Source: Candidatus Microgenomatus sp. (GTDB lineage Bacteria; Patescibacteriota; Microgenomatia; UBA8517). From it: a stretch of 64,000 nt of DNA. Location: positions 287,832 to 351,831 of the forward strand of contig DYGS01000001.1 in NCBI GenBank assembly GCA_020724585.1, read 5' to 3'. The first letter of the stretch is position 1; each line of letters begins with the position of its first letter. Below, one piece after another: positions 43,017 to 61,425 of the stretch. A program made the position numbers and the translations under genes. A model generated the notes under the pieces. That model was not told the DNA's origin. It saw only the letters and a program-made list of their open reading frames with translations, and made no database searches.

Positions 43017-44156
43017 ATGAATATCGGCATTGATGGCAATGAGGCGAATATTGATAACCGAGTGGGAGTTAATGTTTATGCTTTCAATTTACTGCATAAC
43101 CTTAAAAAAATAAACGAAAAGAAACAAAACCCAAACTATCTTATAGTTTATCTTAAAAATAGGCCGTTTTTTGACATGCCTAAAGAGTCAGACTACTTCA
43201 AATATATTGTTTTAGATGATGGTAAATTTTGGGTTTTAACAAAACTCACCAAACATTTATTATTTAATCCTGAAAAAATTGATGTTTTGTTTACCCCTAG
43301 TCATTATGCGAGCCCATTTGTTTTTGTGCCTAAAGTATGCTCAATAATGGATCTAAAATACCTCGAAAATCCGACCAGCTTTAAAAAATTTACATTTTGG
43401 CAGTTGAAGTATTGGACTGCTATTTCAATTTTTGTATCAAAGAGGGTACTAAGTATATCAAAAGATGTAAAGAAAGATATTGTACGACATTATCCATTTG
43501 CTTCGAGAAAAACTGAAGTTGTTTATCTTTCCCACGATTTGAGGCCAAAAGACTTTAAAGTTACAGACAAAGATGTGCGACGCATTAAAAATAAGTATTC
43601 TATAGTATCAAGCTATATTCTATATTTAGGAACATTAAAACCAAGTAAAAATGTAGACGGAATTATCAAAGCCTTCGCAATGCTAAATGCTAAAAATGTA
43701 AATGCTAAAGAATTGCAATTGGTTATTGCTGGTAAAAAAGGTTGGCTATATGAATCTTTGTTTAAATTGGTTGATGAGTTAAATTTAAAAGACAAAGTTA
43801 TCTTTACTGACTTTTTCCCCGAGGAAGACAAGGCAATAATAAGAAAAGGGGCTAGAGTTTTTGTCCAGCCGTCACATACTGAAGGTTTTGGTATTGATAC
43901 GCTATCAGTAATGGCATTGGGAACGCCTGTTGTTGTGTCAAGAGTGGGTAGTCTTTCAGAAATCGTGGGCAATGCGGGAATATATGTTGACCACAATGAC
44001 CCTAAAGATATCGCGAGAGGTATAAAAAAAGTTTTAAACATGAATAAAAACGAATATAATAAATTAGTTGAAGACGGAATTAAGCGGTCAAAGCTTTTTA
44101 GCTGGGACAAGTGCGCACGGGAGACTTTAGAAATATTAGAAAATGTTTGTAGATAA
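43017..44156 (+). CDS. Glycosyltransferase family 4
   Basis: 'EGFGIDTLSVMALGTPVVVSRVGSLSEIVGNAGIYVD'. Confidence 0.75.
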   Translation: MNIGIDGNEANIDNRVGVNVYAFNLLHNLKKINEKKQNPNYLIVYLKNRPFFDMPKESDYFKYIVLDDGKFWVLTKLTKHLLFNPEKIDVLFTPSHYASPFVFVPKVCSIMDLKYLENPTSFKKFTFWQLKYWTAISIFVSKRVLSISKDVKKDIVRHYPFASRKTEVVYLSHDLRPKDFKVTDKDVRRIKNKYSIVSSYILYLGTLKPSKNVDGIIKAFAMLNAKNVNAKELQLVIAGKKGWLYESLFKLVDELNLKDKVIFTDFFPEEDKAIIRKGARVFVQPSHTEGFGIDTLSVMALGTPVVVSRVGSLSEIVGNAGIYVDHNDPKDIARGIKKVLNMNKNEYNKLVEDGIKRSKLFSWDKCARETLEILENVCR

Positions 44157-44739
44157 ATACGGAAACAAATTAACTCTAAGACAGGCTATGCCTAAGATTT
44201 TAAATAGGCTTAATAATTATTGGTTGGATTTTGAGCTGATGCTACTTCGCCTAGCGGGTCATGTTCCTTCACATACAGTTAGAAAATTAATATATAAGTT
44301 TTTTGGTGTGGGAATGGGTAGTGGTTCAACTATTCATATGTGGGCTAATTTTTTTAATCCTAAAAATATTGAAATAGGTGCGGATACTATAATTGGAGAT
44401 CATGCCTTTTTGGATGGTAGAGCTAAACTTACGATAGGAAATCATGTAGACATAGCTTCACAAGTAATGATTTATAACAGCGAACATAATTTGGAATCCG
44501 AAAAATTTGAGGCAATTGAAGAGCCTGTAACTATCAAAGACTATGTCTTTATTGGTCCAAGAGCAATCATTATGCCTGGTGTGACAATTGGGAAAGGCGC
44601 AGTTGTTGCGGGTGGCGCTGTAGTTACTAAGGATGTCCCCGATTTTGCAATTGTAGGAGGCGTCCCTGCAAAAATAATAGGTGAGAGAAAAAGTAAAAAT
44701 TTAAATTATCGTCTTGGCCGCGCAAGGCTGTTTCAGTGA
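44143..44739 (+). CDS. Hexapeptide-repeat (LbH) sugar O-acetyltransferase
   Basis: Repeated [LIV]-G-x-x-x-x hexapeptides: 'IGADTIIGDHAFLDGRAKLTIGNHVDIASQVMI...IGPRAIIMPGVTIGKGAVVAGGAVV'. Confidence 0.7.
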   Translation: MFVDKYGNKLTLRQAMPKILNRLNNYWLDFELMLLRLAGHVPSHTVRKLIYKFFGVGMGSGSTIHMWANFFNPKNIEIGADTIIGDHAFLDGRAKLTIGNHVDIASQVMIYNSEHNLESEKFEAIEEPVTIKDYVFIGPRAIIMPGVTIGKGAVVAGGAVVTKDVPDFAIVGGVPAKIIGERKSKNLNYRLGRARLFQ

Positions 44740-45257
44740 TGAAAAAATATTTTCTCGAAATTTTGACATGTGGACTTTTTCTCTTTGGTGTTTTTTATGT
44801 CGCGCCTAAATCTCCGGATTTTCCTCCTCCGCATAAAGATTTTGTTCAGTCATTCGAACCTGCAGATATAGAAACACCGATGAGACGGGGTTATTATACA
44901 AATTTGACTAGAGAAGAAGTCATGAATTATTACATCAGAAATTTCAATAATGGTTTTAATTATACATTAAGACTTAATTACCCGCCTGAAAGTGCTCAGA
45001 GCATAATTCGCGATCAGACAAAAAGCACTTATTTAGAAGAAATTGTACATCCCCTAAGGGAATCGGTTTATATTAACGGGTTTGAACCACCAACCCCTGA
45101 GTACGCCTTAGTCATTAACGGAGTGAATTATGGTCAAAAAATAATTATCAAATATGTTCCAAGTAGTTTGATTGTCCGCCTTTTTGTAGTTTTATTGTCG
45201 TCGATTTCATTTTATGTTTTAACTCGAGAAATTTTATATGCAAAAAAACAGGCCTAA
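44739..45257 (+). CDS. Hypothetical membrane-anchored protein
   Basis: ORF with N- and C-terminal TM segments. ATG at 44739 (the track's 44736 is GTG). Confidence 0.4.
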   Translation: MKKYFLEILTCGLFLFGVFYVAPKSPDFPPPHKDFVQSFEPADIETPMRRGYYTNLTREEVMNYYIRNFNNGFNYTLRLNYPPESAQSIIRDQTKSTYLEEIVHPLRESVYINGFEPPTPEYALVINGVNYGQKIIIKYVPSSLIVRLFVVLLSSISFYVLTREILYAKKQA

Positions 45258-46164
45258 ATTATCAATAGTTATCGTCTCATTTAATACAGCAAAACTTACC
45301 ATAGATTGTATTAAATCGATTTATAAACATACTAAAAACCTTGATTTTGAGGTTGTTGTTGTTGACAATGGTTCAAGTGATAAAAGCTTGAAAGAATTGA
45401 AGAAATTGAGTTACCTGAATTTAAAAATTATTGAAAGCAAAACAAATTTGGGTTTTGGACAAGGGAATAATTTGGGAATCAAAAGCTCAAGCGGTCAATA
45501 TATCTTACTGCTAAACAGCGACACACTTTTAGTAATGGATATATTAAAAGATATGGTCGATTGGATGGATAAAAATCCTAAGATTGGTGTTTTATCTTGC
45601 GCCTTAAAAAATAAAGATGGATCAATTCAAGGAAGCGGAGGCTATTTTCCAACGCCTTTAAGAGTTTTTAGTTGGCTTACATTTTTAGAAGATTTACCGC
45701 TTATTTCAAATATTATTAAACCTTTTCATCCCATGCATTTAAAATCGCCAATTTGGAAAAATGAAGAATTTTTTAATAAAGAAGATGAAAGGGATTGGGT
45801 AACAGGAGCATTTATGCTTATCAAAAAGGAAGTATTCAAAGTTGCGGGAATGTTTGATCCCGAGTATTTTATGTACATGGAGGAAGTTGATTTATGCTTT
45901 AGAATTAAAAAAGCGGGATATAAGATAATGTATGTGCCAAGATGGGAAATTATTCATTTAGGTGGGGGTTCTGGGTCGGGAGAAAAAACAATTTTAAATG
46001 AATTTAAAAGCCTGCGTATATTTTACAAAAAATGGTATAAAAATTATCTTTTGTTTATGAATTTAATGATTAGGCTAGGAATCGTTTTGAGGATTATACT
46101 TTTTGGAATTCTAGGGAAAACAAACGAATCGAAAACTTATGCAAAAATTTTTAATCAGATATAA
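45238..46164 (+). CDS. Glycosyltransferase family 2 (rhamnosyl/galactosyl-transferase-like)
   Basis: 'LSIVIVSFNTAKLT...VVVVDNGSSD...LLNSD'. Confidence 0.7.
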   Translation: MQKNRPKLSIVIVSFNTAKLTIDCIKSIYKHTKNLDFEVVVVDNGSSDKSLKELKKLSYLNLKIIESKTNLGFGQGNNLGIKSSSGQYILLLNSDTLLVMDILKDMVDWMDKNPKIGVLSCALKNKDGSIQGSGGYFPTPLRVFSWLTFLEDLPLISNIIKPFHPMHLKSPIWKNEEFFNKEDERDWVTGAFMLIKKEVFKVAGMFDPEYFMYMEEVDLCFRIKKAGYKIMYVPRWEIIHLGGGSGSGEKTILNEFKSLRIFYKKWYKNYLLFMNLMIRLGIVLRIILFGILGKTNESKTYAKIFNQI

Positions 46165-47422
46165 CGACTTTTTAAAGTATATAATAACGGCACTTATAAT
46201 TTTTGTGCCTCTTTATCCTAAATTTCCTGCATTCAGAATATCTGAATCGTATGTTGCCATAAGACTTGAGGATTTTTTGATCCTCTTTACTTTATTTACA
46301 ATCTTTCCCATATTAATTAAATACTCTAAGGAATTAATCAAAAATAAACTTATTAGGTCAATTTTAATATTTTTATTAATTGGGTCTGTGTCTTTAATTT
46401 CAGGCGTGTATTTAACACAAACTACAAATTTGACTCAGGGGCTACTTCATTATCTGAGAAGAATTGAATATTTTTCACTTTTTTTTGTTGGATTTGTTTA
46501 CATCCGCTACTTAAATAAAGATAAAAATTTCTTTGAATATGTAATTAAACTTTTATTGTTGGTTAATTTCTTCATATTTATATATGGGTTTGGACAAAGA
46601 TATTTTGAATTCCCAGTAATTATTACCCAAAATGAAGAGTATTCGAAGGGCGTAGCATTGCGCTGGGTTCCTGGGGCTCATATAAATTCAACATTTGCGG
46701 GCCACTATGATCTTGCGTCGTATCTGGTATTGGTTTTACCAATTTTTGTTGCCAGCATTTTTATTTATAAGGATAGATTATCAAAGATAATATTTATTGG
46801 ATCTACAATATTGGGTTTATGGCTCTTGTCAATGGCCGCATCCAGGATATCCGTTGCTGCTTTATTTATATCAGTTACTTTAGTTTTTGTCTTTCTGAAA
46901 CGATTTAAAGAACTTGCTTTAACAATATTTATTTTATTTATAATTTTTGCGACAAGCCCCGATTTGCAAGTCAGATATAAAAGGTTGTTTGATGTTGTGA
47001 TTAATAAAATTAGCTTAGTGCAAATAGCGTATGCACAAAACATTAACAATGAGATAGTGTTTGAAGACCGATCATCATCAATTAGACTAAATGTTGAGTG
47101 GCCAAGAGCAATAAGGGCATTCTCTAAGAATCCAATACTTGGGACTGGTTATTCTTCAATTGGTTTGGCAACAGATAACGATTACTTGCGGCTATTGGGT
47201 GAAGTTGGAATTTTAGGTTTTAGCGCCTTTTTATATGTTATTTACAATATTTTTAAGTATTTTACAAAAGACAGCCTATTTAAAGTTGCGATTATGTCTT
47301 CATTAGTTGGTATACTAGTAATCGCTTTATTTATAGATATATTTGAGGCATCAAAGTTCGCTTTAATGTTTTGGCTGTTCATTGGCTTGATTGTGGGAAG
47401 TAAAAACAAAAATTATGAATAA
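46139..47422 (+). CDS. O-antigen ligase/polymerase-like protein (Wzy_C / WaaL family)
   Basis: About 10 TM helices. Periplasmic loop 'GTGYSSIGLATDNDYLRLLGEVGILGF' resembles the O-antigen ligase signature. Confidence 0.6.
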   Translation: MQKFLIRYNDFLKYIITALIIFVPLYPKFPAFRISESYVAIRLEDFLILFTLFTIFPILIKYSKELIKNKLIRSILIFLLIGSVSLISGVYLTQTTNLTQGLLHYLRRIEYFSLFFVGFVYIRYLNKDKNFFEYVIKLLLLVNFFIFIYGFGQRYFEFPVIITQNEEYSKGVALRWVPGAHINSTFAGHYDLASYLVLVLPIFVASIFIYKDRLSKIIFIGSTILGLWLLSMAASRISVAALFISVTLVFVFLKRFKELALTIFILFIIFATSPDLQVRYKRLFDVVINKISLVQIAYAQNINNEIVFEDRSSSIRLNVEWPRAIRAFSKNPILGTGYSSIGLATDNDYLRLLGEVGILGFSAFLYVIYNIFKYFTKDSLFKVAIMSSLVGILVIALFIDIFEASKFALMFWLFIGLIVGSKNKNYE

Positions 47423-48809
47423 ATTAATTACTCTCGTGAAAACATATATGAAAAACGGATATATAATTTTATCATTTATACTGGTAATTGGATTTATTGT
47501 TCGACTATATAAAGTCAATAATCCCATAGCAGATTGGCACTCTTGGCGACAGGCAGATACTGCGGCAGTTTCCAGAAACTATGTCAAAGATGGTATAAAC
47601 TTATTTTATCCGAGATACGATGATATAAGCAGTATCCAAAGCGGCAAAGATAATCCAACGGGCATAAGGATGGTTGAATTTCCTCTCTATAATGCTCTTC
47701 ATGCAATTTTATATAAATCATTTGGAGTCTTTACTCTTGAAATCTGGGGGAGAATATTAACTGCTCTAATTACAGTAGTTTCTGGTCTATTTATATTTTT
47801 ACTTGGTAAAAAACATTATTCAGAAAAGATAGGTTTAATTGCTTCTTTTTTCTTCATGTTTTTGCCTTTTAATATTTACTTTTCTAGAGTGATCCTGCCT
47901 GACCCATTTGGAGTTATGTTTGGTTTAATCGGACTTTATTTTTATGGAATTAATAATCTTTTCTCAATAATCTCTTTTGCTTTGATGCTACTTCAAAAAC
48001 CATATTTAGCCTTTTTCCTCTTTCCCTTAATTCCAGGCTTTTTGAAAAAGGAAAAGGTTAAATTTAATTTAGCATTTTTATTTTTAGCGTTCTTGCCTTT
48101 TGTAGTATGGCGTTTTTATACCCAGCAGTATCCTGAAGGAATCCCTTTTTACGAATGGGCCTTTAATGGTGATAGGATTAGATTTCATCCGGCTTGGTTT
48201 AGGTGGCTTTTTGGAGAAAGGTTAGGGATATTAATACTTGGTACATGGGGATTAATACCTTTTGCAATAGGTTTAATTAGGAAATATAAAAACAATTTTA
48301 ATTTTTTCTTTAATTTAGGAGCTCTATTCTATTTAACCGTGGTTGCAACTGCCAATGTCCGTCATGATTACTACCAAATTCTTATTATCCCCGCGGTAAC
48401 ACTTAGTTTGGCACTTGGTGTAAGTTATCTTTGGAGAAAATCACCTCTAATTTTATTTATTTCTATGGTTACTATGTTTTTAATTTCCTGGGATAGAATC
48501 AAGCCTTTTTATCAGATTAATCATCCAGAAATTATTGAAGTTGGAAAATTTGTTGATGCAAATCTTCCTAAGGATGCTAAAGTAGTGGTTCCGTATAATG
48601 GTGACACTGCCTTTTTATATCAAACAAATAGAAAAGGCTGGCCCGCAGTTGATGATTCTATTGAAGGTCTTATCAAAAGAGGCGCAACGCACTATGTGTC
48701 ACTAGATCTTTTAAGTCCTGATACAATTAACTTTTCCAAAAGATTTAAAACTATTACCAAAACAAATGAGTATATAATTCTTGATTTACATAAAAATTTG
48801 AAAGAGTAA
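47415..48809 (+). CDS. GT-C-like membrane glycosyltransferase (ArnT-like)
   Basis: 'DWHSWRQADTAAVSRNYVKDG' N-terminal loop plus about 11 TM helices. ATG at 47415 (the track's 47391 is TTG). Confidence 0.5.
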   Translation: MNKLITLVKTYMKNGYIILSFILVIGFIVRLYKVNNPIADWHSWRQADTAAVSRNYVKDGINLFYPRYDDISSIQSGKDNPTGIRMVEFPLYNALHAILYKSFGVFTLEIWGRILTALITVVSGLFIFLLGKKHYSEKIGLIASFFFMFLPFNIYFSRVILPDPFGVMFGLIGLYFYGINNLFSIISFALMLLQKPYLAFFLFPLIPGFLKKEKVKFNLAFLFLAFLPFVVWRFYTQQYPEGIPFYEWAFNGDRIRFHPAWFRWLFGERLGILILGTWGLIPFAIGLIRKYKNNFNFFFNLGALFYLTVVATANVRHDYYQILIIPAVTLSLALGVSYLWRKSPLILFISMVTMFLISWDRIKPFYQINHPEIIEVGKFVDANLPKDAKVVVPYNGDTAFLYQTNRKGWPAVDDSIEGLIKRGATHYVSLDLLSPDTINFSKRFKTITKTNEYIILDLHKNLKE

Positions 48810-48814
48810 AACTT

Positions 48815-48861
48815 ACACAACTTCCTATCTTCTATCTATTATCCAAAATAGGAAGTTGTGT
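48815..48861. terminator. Bidirectional terminator: perfect 14-bp stem (ACACAACTTCCTAT/ATAGGAAGTTGTGT) with a 19-nt loop, between convergent genes, T-tracts on both sides
   Basis: Inverted repeat 48815..48828 / 48848..48861 read from the sequence; followed by TTTATT on the plus strand and preceded by AAAACTTA (T-tract on the minus strand). Confidence 0.7.
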
Positions 48862-48879
48862 TTATTGCCCCGCGTGGTA

Positions 48880-49251
48880 TTATCCGGCGCCGAGTAGGAA
48901 GAACAAAATGGCGCTCAGGATAAGCTTGCTCTGATTGACCACTCCTTCTGCGGTGACCGAGTTCGCCATTCCTTGAGCGAGTTTCAGCGAAATCCATTCC
49001 CAAAGCGGGAGGAGTCCCAGAAAGACACCGAGGAATAGCGCGTAGCATCCACAGCCAGAGCGTCGTGCGTCCTTGCTCACTATTGTGACGATGATGCCGA
49101 TGACCATGAACACGACCCAGATCCACCACGACGCCTTGAAAAACCATGTCTCAACGGCGACGAGTTGATCGAGGTAGTTATCCCACCAGATGACTCCGGT
49201 GAGGTTGTCTTGCGCCATGAACAGCGCAATCAAAGCGGACAGGTAACTCAT
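48880..49251 (-). CDS. Small integral membrane protein encoded by a GC-rich (foreign-looking) segment
   Basis: ATG at 49251 with GGAGG 4 nt upstream; 3–4 hydrophobic segments. The roughly 400-bp segment 48867..49270 is markedly more GC-rich, with GCG/CGC/GGC codons, than everything around it. Confidence 0.55.
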   Translation of the reverse strand: MSYLSALIALFMAQDNLTGVIWWDNYLDQLVAVETWFFKASWWIWVVFMVIGIIVTIVSKDARRSGCGCYALFLGVFLGLLPLWEWISLKLAQGMANSVTAEGVVNQSKLILSAILFFLLGAG

Positions 49252-49357
49252 TTTGCCTCCAATGTGCAAGTTAAATTTAGTCTTTATAAGACTATGGGGT
49301 GTAGTGTACAGAGAGAGAGAGTAAAAGTCAAGTTCGGTATGATAAAATCAATTTAAT

Positions 49358-50557
49358 ATGAAAATTTTGATGCTTTTACCATTTTTACCGATTGATCAGA
49401 TGTCTGGTGGGCAGACAAGATGGTATCATTTGATCAAATTTTTATCTAAAAAGCATAAGATTACAGTGATGTCCTTAATTAGAGGAGACAAAGAAAAAGA
49501 ACTATCATATCTCCCTGAAATCAAAAAATATTGTGAGAAAGTTTTAGTTTTTGATAGACCAAAAAGTCCTTGGACTATCCGAAATTTATTTTTGACACTG
49601 ATCAGTTTTAATCCGCTTGTAGTTATTAGAAATTTTTCTTTGGAAGAAAGACAAGCCATTAAAAAAGAGCTTGAGGAAAATAAATATGACATAATTCACG
49701 CTGAAACTTTTTATGTTATGCCTCATATACCTAATACTAAAGTACCAATAGTTTTGGTTGATCCTACTATTGAGTTTTCAGTTTATAAACATTATGTGGA
49801 CCATGAGGTTTTTTGGCTTTTAAAGCCAATTTATATGTTTGATGTTATTAAACTAAAGTTTTGGGAAAAATATTATTGGAGAAAAGCTAATAGAGTTTTT
49901 GCTGTATCGGAAGAAGACCGTAAAATTATGGAGAAAGAATTAAAAGATGTTGAGGTTGGTATTATTCCAAATGGGGTAGATGTTTCTTACTTTGAAGCCA
50001 AGAAAATAAATAAAAAATTTCCTCCCAGAATTTTATACCACGGCGATTACAAATGGATGCAAAATGTCGAGGCAGTAAATATATTAATTAAAAAAATATG
50101 GCCAAAAATTAAAGCTAAGTTGAAAAATGTAAAACTTTGGATATCGGGCAGGTCAATTCCTAGGTCAATATTGGAATATGCAAAACATGATAAAAATATT
50201 GAGATAAGTGAATCACCAAAGGATAATCGAGATGTTTTTAAGGCTTCTAGCGTGTTGGTAACACCTATAATGAGTCCGGGGGGAACTAGGCTTAAGGTGT
50301 TTGAATCTATGGCCTCCGGTCTCCCTGTTGTATCAACTCCAATTGGTGTTGCAGGATTAAAAATTAAGGACGGAGTCCATGCAATGGTTTCATCTGACCC
50401 AACAAAATTGGCAGAAAAAACTGTCAAGGTTTTGACGGATCAAAAATTGGCCAAAAATCTTGCAGTCGAAGGTAAGAAATATGTATTAAAAAATTTTAGC
50501 TGGCAGTCAATTGTCGATGGGTTAGATAAAATATATCAGTCATTAGTTTTTAAGTAA
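49358..50557 (+). CDS. Glycosyltransferase family 4
   Basis: 'FESMASGLPVVSTPIGVAGLKIKDGVHAMV'. Confidence 0.7.
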   Translation: MKILMLLPFLPIDQMSGGQTRWYHLIKFLSKKHKITVMSLIRGDKEKELSYLPEIKKYCEKVLVFDRPKSPWTIRNLFLTLISFNPLVVIRNFSLEERQAIKKELEENKYDIIHAETFYVMPHIPNTKVPIVLVDPTIEFSVYKHYVDHEVFWLLKPIYMFDVIKLKFWEKYYWRKANRVFAVSEEDRKIMEKELKDVEVGIIPNGVDVSYFEAKKINKKFPPRILYHGDYKWMQNVEAVNILIKKIWPKIKAKLKNVKLWISGRSIPRSILEYAKHDKNIEISESPKDNRDVFKASSVLVTPIMSPGGTRLKVFESMASGLPVVSTPIGVAGLKIKDGVHAMVSSDPTKLAEKTVKVLTDQKLAKNLAVEGKKYVLKNFSWQSIVDGLDKIYQSLVFK

Positions 50558-50559
50558 AA

Positions 50560-51396
50560 ATGGAAATAAAATTATCGATAATAATTTTAAATCACAATAC
50601 AAAAAATATTCTTTTTGATTGCTTAAAGTCGCTTGAAAAAGTAAGGGATGAAGTCAATTTCGAGGTGATTGTTTCAGATAATAATTCGAATGACGGTAGT
50701 TGTGAAATGGTTAGAAAAAATTTCTCTTGGGTAAAATTAATAACAGGTCCTAATATAAGCTTTTCGAATGGCAATAACCGTGCAAAATCGCATGTTAAAG
50801 GTAATTATGTTTTGTTTTTAAATTCGGATACCATAGTTTATAAAAATACACTTAATAGGTGCCTGCGGGTCATGGAAAAAGATAAGAAAATTGGTGCCCT
50901 GACTTGTAAATTAGTTCTTAAAGATGGAACATTGGATAAGGATACAAGACGAAGATTCCCGACTCCATTTGCAGCATTTTTCAAATTATTTCTTGGACTC
51001 AATACAAATTATTGGTATGAAGATCAAGATGAGGACACTACCCATGAGGTTGATGCAATTCAAGGTGCGTTTATTTTAACCAGAAAAAAAATATTAGATA
51101 AAGTTGAGTGGTTCGATGAAAAATTTATTTTTGATGGCGAAGATTTAGATTTATGTTTTCAAATAAAAAAACTAGGATATAAAATAATTTATTATCCGGA
51201 AGTAAAGATACTTCATTTGAAAAAAGCAACTAAAATGAAAATAGGAAATAATGTCAGGATTATGCAAGGTGTTGATTCAATGGAATATTTTTATAAAAAG
51301 AATTTATGGAAGAGATATCCTTTGGTTTTAAATTTTCTTGTTTTACTTGGAATTAAGTTTTTGAAGTTAATAAGATACATAAAATCGAAGATATGA
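50560..51396 (+). CDS. Glycosyltransferase family 2
   Basis: 'LSIIILNHNTKNIL...VIVSDNNSNDGS...LNSD'. Confidence 0.7.
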   Translation: MEIKLSIIILNHNTKNILFDCLKSLEKVRDEVNFEVIVSDNNSNDGSCEMVRKNFSWVKLITGPNISFSNGNNRAKSHVKGNYVLFLNSDTIVYKNTLNRCLRVMEKDKKIGALTCKLVLKDGTLDKDTRRRFPTPFAAFFKLFLGLNTNYWYEDQDEDTTHEVDAIQGAFILTRKKILDKVEWFDEKFIFDGEDLDLCFQIKKLGYKIIYYPEVKILHLKKATKMKIGNNVRIMQGVDSMEYFYKKNLWKRYPLVLNFLVLLGIKFLKLIRYIKSKI

Positions 51397-52499
51397 AGAT
51401 AGTTATAGACGCTAGACTGTATGGGACAAAGCACACTGGTAATGGTAGATATACTCAAAATTTAGTCGAAAATTTAACTAAAATAGACTCAACCAACACC
51501 TACTATATTTTGCTCCGTAAAGATGATTACGAATCATTAAATTTTCCTAAAAATTTTGTAAAAATACTAGCGGATTTTAAACATTATACTTTTAAGGAAC
51601 AATTTTTATTGCCAATAATTATATATAAAATAAAACCTGATATTGTTCACTTTCCTCATTTTAATGTCCCCATTTTTTATTTTGGAAAATTTATTGTGAC
51701 AATACACGACATGATTATGCATAAAAGTAAGGGGGGCGAAGCAACTACAAGGCCATTTCCAATTTATCAAATTTGGAGATTGGGGTACTATTTGGCATTT
51801 GCAAAAGCTGTATATTTTTCAAATTTAATTATTTGCCCAACAAATGTCGTAAAAGACGATTTATCTAGTTTTTATAAAATCAACAAAGATAAAATAAAAG
51901 TTACATATGAGGGAATCGACACTTCAACTAATCAAACCGATTTTAAAGCTGATAATTTGGGTAAATATATTTCATATGTTGGAAATGCTTACCCACATAA
52001 GAATTTAAGAAGACTAATAAAGGCTTTATCTATATACAACAAAAAAAATAAATTAAAAATTAATCTTGCTATATCAGCGGCTCGAAATGTATTCATTGAA
52101 CGAATTGAAAAATTAGCTAAAAAATACAAAGTACAAAAAAACCTAAAAATATTAGGCTATGTCCCTGATAATCAATTAATGTCTTTTTATAATAAATCTA
52201 TTGCTTTTATTTACCCAACATTAATTGAAGGATTTGGTTTACCTGGTTTGGAGGCAATGAGAGCTAAAACACTTGTTTACTCATCGAATATAGATGTACT
52301 AAAAGAAGTCTATAAAGACAATGTAAAGTATTTTAATCCAAAAAGTGTAAAAGAAATTGTCAATTCTATAAATGACGCAGTTCATTTGAATGAAGCTGAT
52401 AGGCAAAAAATAATCAGTAAGGCATATGAATTTACTAAAAACTATTCCTGGCAAAAAATGGCGAAAGAAACGCTAAATATTTACCAGATGGTTGTATAA
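51393..52499 (+). CDS. Glycosyltransferase family 4
   Basis: 'EGFGLPGLEAMRAKTLVYSSNIDVLKEVYKDNVKYFNP'. Confidence 0.7.
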   Translation: MKIVIDARLYGTKHTGNGRYTQNLVENLTKIDSTNTYYILLRKDDYESLNFPKNFVKILADFKHYTFKEQFLLPIIIYKIKPDIVHFPHFNVPIFYFGKFIVTIHDMIMHKSKGGEATTRPFPIYQIWRLGYYLAFAKAVYFSNLIICPTNVVKDDLSSFYKINKDKIKVTYEGIDTSTNQTDFKADNLGKYISYVGNAYPHKNLRRLIKALSIYNKKNKLKINLAISAARNVFIERIEKLAKKYKVQKNLKILGYVPDNQLMSFYNKSIAFIYPTLIEGFGLPGLEAMRAKTLVYSSNIDVLKEVYKDNVKYFNPKSVKEIVNSINDAVHLNEADRQKIISKAYEFTKNYSWQKMAKETLNIYQMVV

Positions 52500-52506
52500 T
52501 ACGCAT

Positions 52507-52845
52507 ATGGGATTTGAAGATAATCTAGAAAAAGGAAGTAGTTCAAAACAAGCAAGGTTGTATAAAATGACATTGCAAAAGGCAGTTGACATGGGAGAAT
52601 ACGATCCAAAATTTTTATCTACTTTTGCAGAATGGCACACTTTAAGTAGACATGTGCAGTTTCAATTTATAAGAACGGCCATTGAAAATAGAAGAAAACA
52701 CCTAGTTGTGCAGTATGCAGAGGTTAATAACATGTTGGACTTCTCTAAAAAACCTCATTTAGCAGATGCTCTTCGAAATATCGAAAGACAACTGAAGATT
52801 ATTGAAAACGATAGAGAAAAACTATTTGTAGAATATTCAAAATAG
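52507..52845 (+). CDS. Hypothetical protein (start uncertain: track TTG at 52492, ATG at 52507 preceded by TATAAT, possibly leaderless)
   Basis: ORF only. Confidence 0.3.
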   Translation: MGFEDNLEKGSSSKQARLYKMTLQKAVDMGEYDPKFLSTFAEWHTLSRHVQFQFIRTAIENRRKHLVVQYAEVNNMLDFSKKPHLADALRNIERQLKIIENDREKLFVEYSK

Positions 52846-52846
52846 T

Positions 52847-52868
52847 TCCGTGTACTAGTCTACGGATA
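52847..52868. promoter_or_regulatory. 22-bp imperfect palindrome TCCGTGTACTAGTCTACGGATA (copy 1), containing the TrpR-operator-like GTACTAGT core; immediately 3' of the TrpR-like gene
   Basis: Perfect direct repeat of 53300..53321; read from the sequence. Confidence 0.6.
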
Positions 52869-52872
52869 CAGG

Positions 52873-53283
52873 CTATCTTTTTACATCTTTTCGTCTGAAT
52901 CCGGTAAATTTAACATATTTTTTCCAGTTTAGAGAATTAACCTTCTCGATATATGCTTTACTATAATATTCGTTCTCAACCTTCTCCTCTCTTTGATTTA
53001 TCATATCAAAACACTTTGGGAACCTGCTTTTGAGTTTTTGCACCTGAAGTATTGTTTGTTTGCCGACTTTCAATATTTTTCTAATTTCATCATATGTTAA
53101 ATCTTCATCTAGTAGTTTAGCAATTATAATTCTTCTGCCAATTTTTATTCTTTCGTCGCTTGTTAATATGCCTTTTATAATTTGATCTACATCTGAGCCA
53201 TCTTTAGCGGCCAAAAAAACTGACCTTAGTTTATTAAATACTTCAAATATTGCCTCTTTTTCTAAAAAACTGTATCTTCTCAT
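52873..53283 (-). CDS. TrpR/YerC-family helix-turn-helix regulator
   Basis: 'LTSDERIKIGRRIIIAKLLDEDLTYDEIRKILKVGKQTILQV' resembles the YerC/YecD TrpR-like HTH region. Confidence 0.5.
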   Translation of the reverse strand: MRRYSFLEKEAIFEVFNKLRSVFLAAKDGSDVDQIIKGILTSDERIKIGRRIIIAKLLDEDLTYDEIRKILKVGKQTILQVQKLKSRFPKCFDMINQREEKVENEYYSKAYIEKVNSLNWKKYVKFTGFRRKDVKR

Positions 53284-53299
53284 TAAATAATTTCTTGTA

Positions 53300-53321
53300 T
53301 CCGTGTACTAGTCTACGGATA
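53300..53321. promoter_or_regulatory. 22-bp palindrome TCCGTGTACTAGTCTACGGATA (copy 2), 17–38 bp upstream of the TrpR-like gene start; candidate autoregulatory operator
   Basis: Identical to 52847..52868. Confidence 0.6.
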
Positions 53322-53422
53322 TATAGTAGCATATGTTGGTGGATGGGTTAAAATTAGCTAGAATATATTATTAGAGGAAGAATATGTAAGATGATATTAA
53401 ATAATAAAGGTTTTGGTTATAC

Positions 53423-54601
53423 ATGATGACAAGTAATTATAAAAAGACAATAATTGTTTTCAACAAAGTAGCTATAGTATATGACAGGGTGAATAAGTTT
53501 GGGGGGGCAGAGAGGGTTTTATTAACTCTTCATGAGATGTTTCCTGATGCTCCTCTTTATACTTCTGTTTATGATAAAAAAAATGCATCTTGGGCCTCAT
53601 GTTTTCCTAAAATTTATACCTCATTTTTACAGAAATTTAAATTTGTACGAAATCATCACGAATTGTTTGGTTGGCTAATGCCAATTGCGTTTGAGCAGTT
53701 TGATTTTAGTCAATATGACTTGGTTATTTCAGTAACTAGCGAGGCGGCAAAAGGTATTATTACTTTACCTAAAACAAAACACATATGTTATATGCTTACT
53801 CCAACAAGATATTTATGGAGCGGATATGATTTTTATTTAAATAATCCACCAAATATATTTAAATATATTCCTTTTTTTAAGTTATTATCAAAGCCTATTT
53901 TGGGATATTTAAGGTGGTGGGATAAAGTTGTTGCCAAGAGACCTGACAAAATTATCGCAATTTCAACAGAAGTTCAAAAAAGAATTAAAAAATATTATAA
54001 CCTTGAAAGTGAAATAATATTTCCTCCCGTCGATTTGCGGCATTTTAAAAAATCGCTCGTTGGAGGGCTCCGCTCAGAGAGTCGAGCAGCCGCTCGCAAT
54101 TTTTTGGAAAATGCCTATTCAAATAATTATTATTTTATTCATGGCCGGTTTGAACCATATAAAAAACTAGATTTGATACTTTCAATTTTTAAGAAGAATA
54201 AATTGCCTTTAGTTGTTTCAGGTAGTGGATCAGAATTTGAGAGGCTCAAAACAAATAGGTACAAAAACATTAAATTTATATCAAAGCCAAATGATCAAGA
54301 ATTAATAAATTTATATCAAAATGCAAAAGCATTTTTAATGCCGCAAGAAGAAGATTTTGGTATAACATCAGTCGAAGCTCAAGGCTTTGGCGTTCCCGTC
54401 ATTGCATATAATAAAGGTGGAAGTTTAGATACAATAATTGACGGGAAGACTGGAATATTGTTTAATGACCAGACTGTCGAGAGTTTATCAAAAGCAATTG
54501 AAAAATTTGACAGGACCAGCTTTGATAAGCAATACTTAATGACTAACGCAAAACGCTTTAGTAAAGAAAGGTTTATAAAAGAATTTATTAATATTTTATG
54601 A
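53423..54601 (+). CDS. Glycosyltransferase family 4
   Basis: 'EEDFGITSVEAQGFGVPVIAYNKGGSLDTIIDGKTGILF'. TAGAAT -10-like box about 60 nt upstream. Confidence 0.7.
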   Translation: MMTSNYKKTIIVFNKVAIVYDRVNKFGGAERVLLTLHEMFPDAPLYTSVYDKKNASWASCFPKIYTSFLQKFKFVRNHHELFGWLMPIAFEQFDFSQYDLVISVTSEAAKGIITLPKTKHICYMLTPTRYLWSGYDFYLNNPPNIFKYIPFFKLLSKPILGYLRWWDKVVAKRPDKIIAISTEVQKRIKKYYNLESEIIFPPVDLRHFKKSLVGGLRSESRAAARNFLENAYSNNYYFIHGRFEPYKKLDLILSIFKKNKLPLVVSGSGSEFERLKTNRYKNIKFISKPNDQELINLYQNAKAFLMPQEEDFGITSVEAQGFGVPVIAYNKGGSLDTIIDGKTGILFNDQTVESLSKAIEKFDRTSFDKQYLMTNAKRFSKERFIKEFINIL

Positions 54602-60996: not shown

Positions 60997-61425
60997 ATGT
61001 TAGTTGGAAGTTATCAGGCAGTACTAAGCGATGCAAGACGCGTCGCAGTACCTAAAAAATTTATTACAGAATTGGGAGATAACCCAATAATTGCCAAGTG
61101 GTATGAAGACTGCTTGATAATAGTCCCCAAAAGTTTTTGGGATTCTTTATCAAAAAGGTTGGTTGGAGGCCGAAGGGCAATTGATCTTGGTGTCAGGGAT
61201 ATTGAAAGATTTATTTTGGGTTCAGCATTCGAACTGGAACCCGACGGGCAAGGAAGAATAATAATCCCTGAGTTATTGGCAAATTATGCAAAATTTGATA
61301 AAGACCTTGTCTTTGTAGGACTTATGGATAGGGTTGAAATATGGCCTAAAAAAGTTTGGGATGAAAAATCTGAAACGCTAGCGGCTGTAACCAAAGAGTA
61401 TATAGAAAGCATAAATCATGACTGA
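60997..61425 (+). CDS. mraZ: Transcriptional regulator MraZ
   Basis: 'VAVPKKFITELGDNPIIAKWYEDCLIIVPKSFWD' and a second 'RIIIPELLANYAKFDKDLVFVG' repeat; the MraZ double motif. Confidence 0.85.
   Translation: MLVGSYQAVLSDARRVAVPKKFITELGDNPIIAKWYEDCLIIVPKSFWDSLSKRLVGGRRAIDLGVRDIERFILGSAFELEPDGQGRIIIPELLANYAKFDKDLVFVGLMDRVEIWPKKVWDEKSETLAAVTKEYIESINHD

Follow-up and report, generated by a model that had tools for sequence, protein, structure and literature searches.

Phage morons (Juhala/Hendrix) are defined as DNA that is extra in comparison with related genomes, has a promoter and a terminator of its own and is deviant in G+C content (GC) (PMC3594210). The archetype and first described example, HK97 gp15, encodes a small inner-membrane protein. 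Horizontal gene transfer (HGT) between ultra-small bacteria is likewise documented, with deviant GC as its usual signature, which amelioration erases over time (PMC12455944). Here, we describe a unit that recalls both in a 64,000-nt stretch of the Candidatus Microgenomatus sp. genome (Patescibacteriota; contig DYGS01000001.1, positions 287,832 to 351,831; hereafter "the window"). It is an insert at positions 48810–49357 with a single GC-rich gene for a 123-aa membrane protein. We favor, at a probability of roughly 0.55, the reading that this is an acquired unit whose GC richness is intrinsic to the gene family through selection for structured mRNA, and that it would yield a strongly expressed accessory membrane protein of the cell envelope.

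Like a moron, the unit is extra DNA between genes that are adjacent in relatives (548 bp, compared with 0–19 bp in 10 of 14 directly read junctions), consists of a single small gene, differs in GC from its neighbors (0.535 against 0.318) and has an apparent promoter of its own (TTGACT-17-TACACT) with a 25-nt core invariant in three loci. In the place of a moron's terminator, the window has a hairpin with U-rich tails and folding energies of −17.9 kcal/mol on the plus strand and −22.9 kcal/mol on the minus strand; its stem is AT-rich, its loop measures 13–19 nt and a consensus scan does not call it. Unlike a moron, the unit sits in a conserved chromosomal operon of a Patescibacterium, has no viral homolog, and is reverse-oriented, interrupting an operon that would need a restart. 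It also differs from the islands of Patescibacteria (PMC12455944) in being a single 0.5-kb gene and in that the GC deviance outlasts saturated synonymous divergence in several AT-rich hosts. The features of the locus are as follows:

47391–48809, plus strand: upstream flank, a 472-aa polytopic membrane protein with a weak PMT_2-like match, part of the conserved envelope-glycosylation operon
48810–49357, no strand: whole insert, 548 bp, from just after the stop codon of the 472-aa gene to just before the GT4 ATG
48815–48861, no strand: hairpin, candidate bidirectional intrinsic terminator of two convergent genes, with a 14-bp perfect stem and a loop of 13–19 nt
48862–48879, minus strand: GC-rich 3′ untranslated spacer of 18 nt from stop codon to hairpin, reading TACCACGCGGGGCAATAA on the minus strand
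48880–49251, minus strand: coding sequence (CDS) of the 123-aa membrane protein, with ATG at 49251–49249 and TAA at 48882–48880
49256–49260, minus strand: Shine-Dalgarno GGAGG, 4 nt 5′ of the ATG
49278–49294, minus strand: stem-loop UAGUCUU-AUA-AAGACUA of the 5′ untranslated region (5′UTR), with a 7-bp stem
49303–49331, minus strand: predicted sigma-70-type promoter TTGACT-17 nt-TACACT with a (CT)n spacer, from a promoter scan
49358–50557, plus strand: downstream flank, a GT4-family glycosyltransferase that normally abuts the 472-aa gene

A horizontally acquired unit in an operon junction

The interrupted operon, of a Woesebacteria type, has the order GT2, Wzy_C-like, 472-aa membrane protein, GT4, GT2, GT4; the Pfam PMT_2 match of the 472-aa protein (E = 0.013) is below the family cut-off. 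A search with this protein returned 26 genome loci with the same gene order, mostly in metagenome-assembled genomes (MAGs) of Candidatus Woesebacteria or other Patescibacteria and covering several candidate phyla (Woesebacteria, Daviesbacteria, Levyibacteriota). Besides the 10 junctions given above, two of the 14 that were read directly have 36–67 bp separating the 472-aa gene from the GT4 ATG, and the ends of tblastn matches put the gap between the flanks at about 70 bp or less in 21 of the 26 loci. No relative of the small protein occurs within ±6 kb in any of the 26. Because the flanking genes abut in relatives and all 26 are without the small gene, the segment 48810–49357 is an insertion, and specifically a horizontally acquired, self-contained transcription unit lying in reverse orientation in an operon junction. 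The original prediction of an acquisition thus stands.

The junction appears to tolerate insertions, since five other lineages hold inserts there (L010:7393-7758, L023:7393-8924, L025:5684-7525, L026:7450-11135 and L028:7426-8100). These are different from ours, co-oriented with the operon and compositionally normal; they include a protein starting MKIMFLDESGDHNL with a GT2-like gene (L023), a 605-aa open reading frame (ORF; L025) and a 214-aa ORF (L028). Among the inserts at this junction, only that of the window is reverse-oriented and GC-rich. No terminal inverted repeats bounding it were found. Most of the insert is bracketed by a 12-nt direct repeat, GAAAGAGTAAAA at 48800–48811 and GAGAGAGTAAAA at 49315–49326, identical at 11 of 12 positions. 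We rejected a target-site duplication because the second copy belongs to a promoter that is conserved in other contexts; the repeat may be microhomology used at insertion, or may be due to chance.

Among 5.8 billion proteins, just four further clusters are related to the small protein. Two of these, at loci L003 and L005, are 74% identical to it and lie on short contigs of 30–33% GC from other samples (for L005, from the Hainich groundwater wells), which allowed the unit to be compared part by part. In a locus alignment, homology between the window and L003/L005 begins sharply at the −35 hexamer and stops at the stop codon. The 25-nt TTGACTTTTACTCTCTCTCTCTGTA (49307–49331, minus strand), unique within the window, is identical at L003:3261–3285 and L005:75–99, at a synonymous divergence (dS) of >1.3 across the CDS. 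It runs from the −35 hexamer through the (CT)n spacer into the −10 hexamer, and its invariance suggests that the spacer may have an operator or DNA-structure role (as a polypurine/polypyrimidine tract) beyond the two hexamers. The leader is roughly 45 nt long, and the 7-bp stem of the 5′UTR is kept in L003/L005 as UAGUAUC...GAUACUA, where C-G has become A-U at one pair and U-A has become C-G at another, both partners having changed. The subgroup of L004 and L040 has a different conserved leader, GAGAAATTCATTCTGAAAC-GGAGGTTTC.

Similar signals recur across the family. GGAGG or GGAG lies at the equivalent position in all 12 family loci in which upstream sequence was inspected; a TTGAYN - 17–18 nt - TANNNT promoter was read, by eye and without statistical scoring, upstream of 10 of 13 loci; and folds reveal a stem followed by a T run 3′ of the gene in L001, L003, L004, L005, L037, L040 and L042. 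The layout of the insert would suit a stand-alone, strongly expressed monocistronic gene. Most anatomical details of the original prediction hold: an AT-rich promoter side (TTGACT-17-TACACT, 49331–49303), a GGAGG ribosome-binding site (49260–49256) and a perfect 14-bp stem with a 19-nt loop (48815–48861), whereas the length of 124 aa becomes 123 aa plus the stop.

In this hairpin, ACACAACTTCCTAT at 48815–48828 pairs perfectly with 48848–48861, and 17 pairs are reached if one mismatch, or G-U pairing on the minus strand, is allowed. Its folding energies correspond to shuffle z-scores of −6.4 (plus) and −5.6 (minus), with 0 of 200 shuffles equaling them, and it is the strongest short-range, non-low-complexity inverted repeat of the window, in which it has no second copy; viral contigs and the other searches gave no match either. 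U-rich tails flank it on both strands (TTTATTG after the stem on the plus strand, AAGTTTTAC on the minus strand). Thus, the predicted bidirectional terminator keeps its strong hairpin and its tails, but we grade that function as plausible only, since the consensus scan made no call. The hairpin is absent at this junction in the syntenic relatives and has no homology with the L003/L005 terminators, which are G+C-rich stems with a T run whereas that of the window is AT-rich; the 18-nt spacer before it also has no counterpart in L003/L005.

If functional, the hairpin would stop both convergent transcripts, and by terminating transcription from upstream it would leave the GT4-GT2-GT4 half of the operon in need of a new start. 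An extended −10-like TGATAAAAT is found at 49340–49348 and ends 9 nt short of the GT4 start codon (49358). As a candidate restart promoter, it could give the downstream half a near-leaderless mRNA; a promoter scan requiring a −35 hexamer does not call it.

The GC richness of the gene and its family

The segment 48867–49270 has 54.0% GC, compared with 31.9% for the whole window (z = 5.8 against 400-bp segments with mean 0.319 and standard deviation 0.038). The eight highest-GC 400-bp segments of the 64 kb all overlap it, the next best elsewhere reaches 0.405, and composition steps abruptly at ~48866 and 49262. The gene has GC of 0.52, 0.39 and 0.69 at first, second and third codon positions (GC1, GC2 and GC3), while GC3 in the 60 other ORFs of the window is 0.257 ± 0.037 with a maximum of 0.364 (z = 11.9). 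Both the GC-rich outlier and the compositionally foreign gene that had been proposed are therefore real. Amino acid composition alone adds only about +0.06 GC: recoded with host codon usage, the same protein would be encoded at 0.38 GC and GC3 0.31. The favored codons (CTC/CTG, GTC, GCG and ATC) are those of a mid- to high-GC genome.

A very recent acquisition from a high-GC donor had been proposed on this basis, of which the acquisition stands whereas the donor and the recency are weakened. The relatives at 74% amino acid identity lie in contigs of 30–33% GC with the same AT-rich promoter and 5′UTR, at dS 1.35–1.6 from the window, and no high-GC homolog was found among the 5.8 billion proteins, the most GC-rich host flank being 53%. 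Instead, the composition recurs across the family. Gene GC exceeds flank GC in all 13 family loci with DNA (mean +0.099) and ranges from 0.44 to 0.58 against flanks of 0.30–0.53, with a slope of gene on flank of 0.27 (p = 0.10). The excess is 0.03–0.08 in mid-GC hosts and 0.11–0.22 in AT-rich hosts. AT-hosted copies belong to several lineages at saturated synonymous divergence, with GC3 of 0.54–0.69. For example, the GC3 values of the window, L003 and L005 are 0.69, 0.61 and 0.54. Most clearly, in L032 and L034, the family gene and a 135-aa partner are syntenic at a synonymous difference (pS) of 0.73–0.80 with GC3 of 0.54–0.62, compared with 0.16–0.29 in their neighbors. The composition step falls at the edge of the CDS in every AT-rich locus; outside it, promoter and leader are AT-rich, as is the terminator in the window.

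The L032/L034 subfamily has a characteristic arrangement, in which the family gene is followed by a conserved membrane protein of 134–135 aa (MRHIINFF..., with a poly-Ser C-terminal tail; L032:777-1184, L034:2525-2929). In L034, a 139-aa lipoprotein-like ORF (L034:1667-2086) precedes the family gene. All of these genes have GC of 0.48–0.51 in hosts of GC3 0.16–0.29.

The transcripts are also unusually structured. Dinucleotide shuffling gives folding z-scores of −3.4 for the window transcript and −5.1 for L003. When synonymous codons were permuted within each gene, so that the protein, its codon usage and its GC did not change, the mean z over the first 11 family loci was −2.05 (window −3.27), compared with −0.22 for 30 control genes of the window (Mann-Whitney p = 5e-4) and −0.55 for 22 GC-matched control genes (p = 1.7e-3). 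With L042 and L043 added, the mean over all 13 loci is −1.86. AT-hosted copies average −2.8, whereas the others average −1.1, and adjacent small GC-rich genes are structured as well (z = −5.3 for the L032 partner, −3.5 and −2.8). Within the close subgroup, only local hairpins are shared, and there the test is confounded by the conserved protein sequence.

This is modest evidence that the composition is maintained, most simply by selection for stable, structured mRNA. The GC richness of the family, and of the small partner genes linked to it, would then be a family property that does not point to a high-GC donor. Its most likely cause would be selection for an mRNA that is GC-rich, highly structured and long-lived, and such an mRNA, together with a strong promoter and ribosome-binding site, would give a high constitutive output. 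The AT richness of promoter, leader and terminator makes another AT-rich Patescibacterium the probable immediate donor. As a more far-reaching and tentative proposal, which we think possible but would not yet adopt, a Patescibacteria-specific family and its partners may be actively held near 50% GC (GC3 0.55–0.7) by selection on mRNA structure or stability rather than by donor ancestry, and may spread as a promoter-plus-CDS "chromosomal moron" into essential-looking operons.

The event itself, a well-bounded single-gene acquisition in an ultra-small bacterium that brings its own apparent expression signals and splits a conserved envelope operon, is of an ordinary type; the family-wide excess of GC and mRNA structure in AT-rich hosts is what is unusual. 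Deviations in GC and codon usage are widely used as a clock and marker of recent HGT, to which a host-independent GC set-point, if true, would be a counter-example. If selection maintains the composition, the family would also be a natural test case of how CDS structure controls mRNA lifetime where RNA-decay machinery is minimal.

A small family of membrane proteins and its possible role

The protein (MSYLSALIAL...LLGAG) has two clear transmembrane (TM) segments (~40–58 and 67–87) and short hydrophobic helices at both termini, and AlphaFold with a 35-sequence alignment returns four helices at a confidence (pLDDT) of 88. The earlier description as a small membrane protein with 3–4 TM helices is thus right in kind, with two TM segments being clear and the two terminal helices short. 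Nonsynonymous to synonymous substitution ratios (dN/dS) are 0.12–0.14 when the window is compared with L003/L005 and 0.06 when these two are compared with each other, which marks the CDS as a real protein-coding gene kept by purifying selection.

When 1.84 billion representatives were searched exhaustively with a profile, 40 proteins matched at E ≤ 1e-3, nearly all of 116–144 aa and aligned end to end, with family profile matches down to E = 2.6e-42. Five family members share 48 invariant columns. The conserved motifs, all present in the window protein, are an N-terminal MSY(L/I)S, a Trp-rich interfacial helix WWD-YLD-LV-VE-WF, LPLWEW, a CGC at the cytoplasmic start of the third helix (TM3) and a C-terminal LLGxG. 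No specific match to the protein was found in Pfam, NCBIfam, PADLOC or the PDB (sequence and fold). It therefore belongs to a very small and previously unannotated family of helical membrane proteins, which the insert defines and whose members lie on Patescibacteria-type contigs.

Several family members have neighbors related to the envelope. At L041:4218-9736, the sole locus from JGI metagenomes (found with a five-sequence profile), the gene has mreB and a PAP2-family membrane gene on one side and mreC-like, mreD-like and PBP2-like genes on the other, the last three identified by eye; mreB is also immediately upstream in L037 and L038. This region may be the "resident" neighborhood of the family. 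Other envelope neighbors are a penicillin-binding protein (PBP) fragment in L032, Wzy_C in L003, a site-2 protease in L040 and the glycosylation operon in the window. Toxin-antitoxin and defense-like genes in variable regions also adjoin the family gene in L003, L004 and L034. A conserved protein of 420–425 aa, without a significant Pfam match, is linked to distant members, downstream in L037 (L037:2835-4112) and L038 (L038:1344-2621) and upstream in L039 (L039:1154-2416).

Based on the envelope neighbors, the patchy distribution and the strong expression signals, our guess, quite possibly right but short of even odds, is that the product serves the envelope as an accessory, highly expressed protein of the inner membrane, in either a protective (exclusion- or immunity-like) or a modulatory capacity. 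Exclusion and immunity proteins are constitutively expressed and often stand-alone. Like HK97 gp15, P22 SieA and the bacteriocin immunity proteins, the family would comprise small helical accessory inner-membrane proteins that are horizontally acquired, patchily distributed and equipped with their own promoter. Unlike them, it has no phage or bacteriocin context, it shares no sequence or fold similarity with them, and some of its members are in housekeeping-looking mreB/PBP2 neighborhoods. A second parallel is with GtrA and ArnE/ArnF (SMR/DMT type), small translocases of lipid-linked sugars encoded next to glycosyltransferases, which resemble the window protein in having about 120 aa and four hydrophobic helices, and in lying beside a PMT_2-like membrane glycosyltransferase and a GT2. 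However, the insertion is absent from relatives that keep the operon, most homologs are in unrelated contexts, and the GtrA and EamA/SMR models of Pfam and NCBIfam matched neither the protein at E ≤ 10 nor any of 35 family members at E ≤ 0.1. The recurrence of envelope neighborhoods (mreB/PBP2, Wzy_C, glycosyltransferases) makes the family a candidate accessory factor of the poorly understood cell surface of Patescibacteria.

Competing explanations and further observations

The alternative that survives best is that the GC richness needs no selection. Under this explanation, AT-rich lineages independently and recently imported the gene from Patescibacteria of ~50–55% GC or higher, and the copies have not yet ameliorated. 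HGT among Patescibacteria is documented (PMC12455944), and the family genes lie near toxin-antitoxin and defense-like genes, typical of variable regions. The gene's absence from the 26 syntenic relatives and its codon usage (GC3 0.69, as in a mid- to high-GC genome) would be expected, as would a family member with GC3 0.72 in a 53% GC contig. The lower GC3 of L003 (0.61) and L005 (0.54) fits partial amelioration from ~0.7 since their split at dS 0.58, and in mid-GC hosts the excess of 0.03–0.08 is roughly the +0.06 due to amino acids. However, about five AT-hosted lineages (window, L003/L005, L004, L032 and L034) would all have to be recent recipients, and we saw no copy that had ameliorated. 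AT-rich contigs harbor the closest relatives of the window gene, which share an AT-rich promoter and leader with it (the window's terminator is AT-rich too), the composition boundary is the CDS in every AT-rich locus, and neutral import does not predict excess folding that is strongest in the AT-hosted copies. We consider recent import possible but rather doubtful.

Several points weigh against selection on a strongly expressed mRNA and for caution on the role of its product. The 53% GC host of L043, where the gene has GC3 0.72, is a GC-richer reservoir, and once it is included gene GC rises weakly with host GC; because of this reservoir and this trend, repeated recent import with partial amelioration stays viable. 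For many loci host GC comes from only 0.4–4 kb of flank, and independence does not hold for all 13 loci, given the 88% nucleotide identity of L003 and L005. Polarized changes from strong to weak and from weak to strong bases number 8:6, a small count with a saturated outgroup. RNAalifold on 11 codon-aligned CDSs yields essentially no family-wide consensus structure (−0.8 kcal/mol), so the excess folding is a general compactness and not one particular RNA element. The window has no ribosomal-protein or EF-Tu genes, and thus no internal reference for the codon usage of highly expressed genes. The promoter, the terminator and the high expression of the unit are all predictions from sequence; the consensus terminator scan passes over the hairpin, its loop being too long and its stem AT-rich. 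Finally, gene-neighborhood support for an envelope role is heterogeneous and anecdotal.

Far less probable, in our view, is the phage or mobile-element remnant of the original prediction, that is, a prophage moron or a holin/lysis cassette left in the chromosome, although the anatomy agrees with the moron definition and HK97 gp15 likewise encodes a small inner-membrane protein. The protein has no relative in 2.9 million viral contigs, where the promoter and the hairpin also have no match, and tblastn gave 0 matches in 50,697 phage and 72,556 plasmid records. There was no fold match in BFVD and no convincing match in PHROG, with isolated hits at E = 0.006 for 2 of 35 family members. The flanking operon is conserved chromosomal DNA, present in 26 loci from several candidate phyla, and none of 10 neighboring ORFs scanned (43017–54598) has an integrase, transposase or lysin domain. 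The suggested holin- or transporter-like function finds no family or fold match and no nearby lysin gene. For a holin in particular, the C-terminus should be highly charged and hydrophilic, whereas the protein ends in ...ILFFLLGAG, its last charged residue being K109, and its neighbors are glycosyltransferases and membrane proteins, with no endolysin and no phage context.

We find it still harder to credit that the GC-rich block is not an ordinary protein gene but a structured or dual-function RNA, or else an integron-type cassette in which the hairpin would be the attC site. The sense strand folds unusually well, and the hairpin ends (ACACAAC...GTTGTGT) match the attC core (RYYYAAC...GTTRRRY) at 6 of 7 positions by eye. 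Nevertheless, the frame is protein-coding because dN/dS is 0.06–0.14 and GC3 > GC1 > GC2; no Rfam match was obtained at the gathering threshold or at E ≤ 1, and the family has no shared consensus structure. Integron cassettes normally consist of a promoterless ORF and an attC site, with an imperfect stem and extrahelical bases, and have an integrase or an array nearby. Here, the hairpin is a unique and perfect 47-nt stem-loop without extrahelical bases, the unit appears to have its own promoter, the downstream folds of the homologs (a G+C-rich stem and a T run) are not attC-like, and there is no array in the window, which was not given a dedicated integrase scan. A type I toxin, with fewer than ~60 aa, a single TM segment and an overlapping antisense RNA, was rejected as well, given 123 aa, four helices and no antisense promoter called within the gene.

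An assembly chimera or contamination, in which a foreign GC-rich fragment was joined into an AT-rich contig, is very unlikely and the least probable of all, despite the abrupt composition steps, since the steps match a complete gene unit in which the AT-rich promoter, leader and ribosome-binding site run straight into the GC-rich CDS, two other assemblies from different samples (L003 and L005; Logan SRR22387874 and ENA ERZ1292616) show this promoter-CDS join as well, both flanks continue the conserved operon in correct order and frame, and the protein is recorded on a single 744,514-bp NCBI contig.

Twelve of the loci with the operon (L006, L008, L010, L015, L017, L019, L023, L024, L026–L028 and L031), at 40–72% identity to the query protein, come from records titled "uncultured Gammaproteobacteria," "Pseudomonadales" or "Woesearchaeota archaeon"; these titles are probably taxonomic mislabels of MAGs. 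No tRNA genes and no Rfam matches were found in the window, which is dominated by glycosyltransferase and membrane genes. Leaving the inserted gene aside, we took 60 ORFs of at least 110 aa as genes; 54 of them run on the plus strand, and in many the stop and start codons overlap. The minus strand carries a Trp-repressor-like gene (52873–53283), and an ORF near the 3′ end of the window (60997–61425) is MraZ-like, as judged by eye only.

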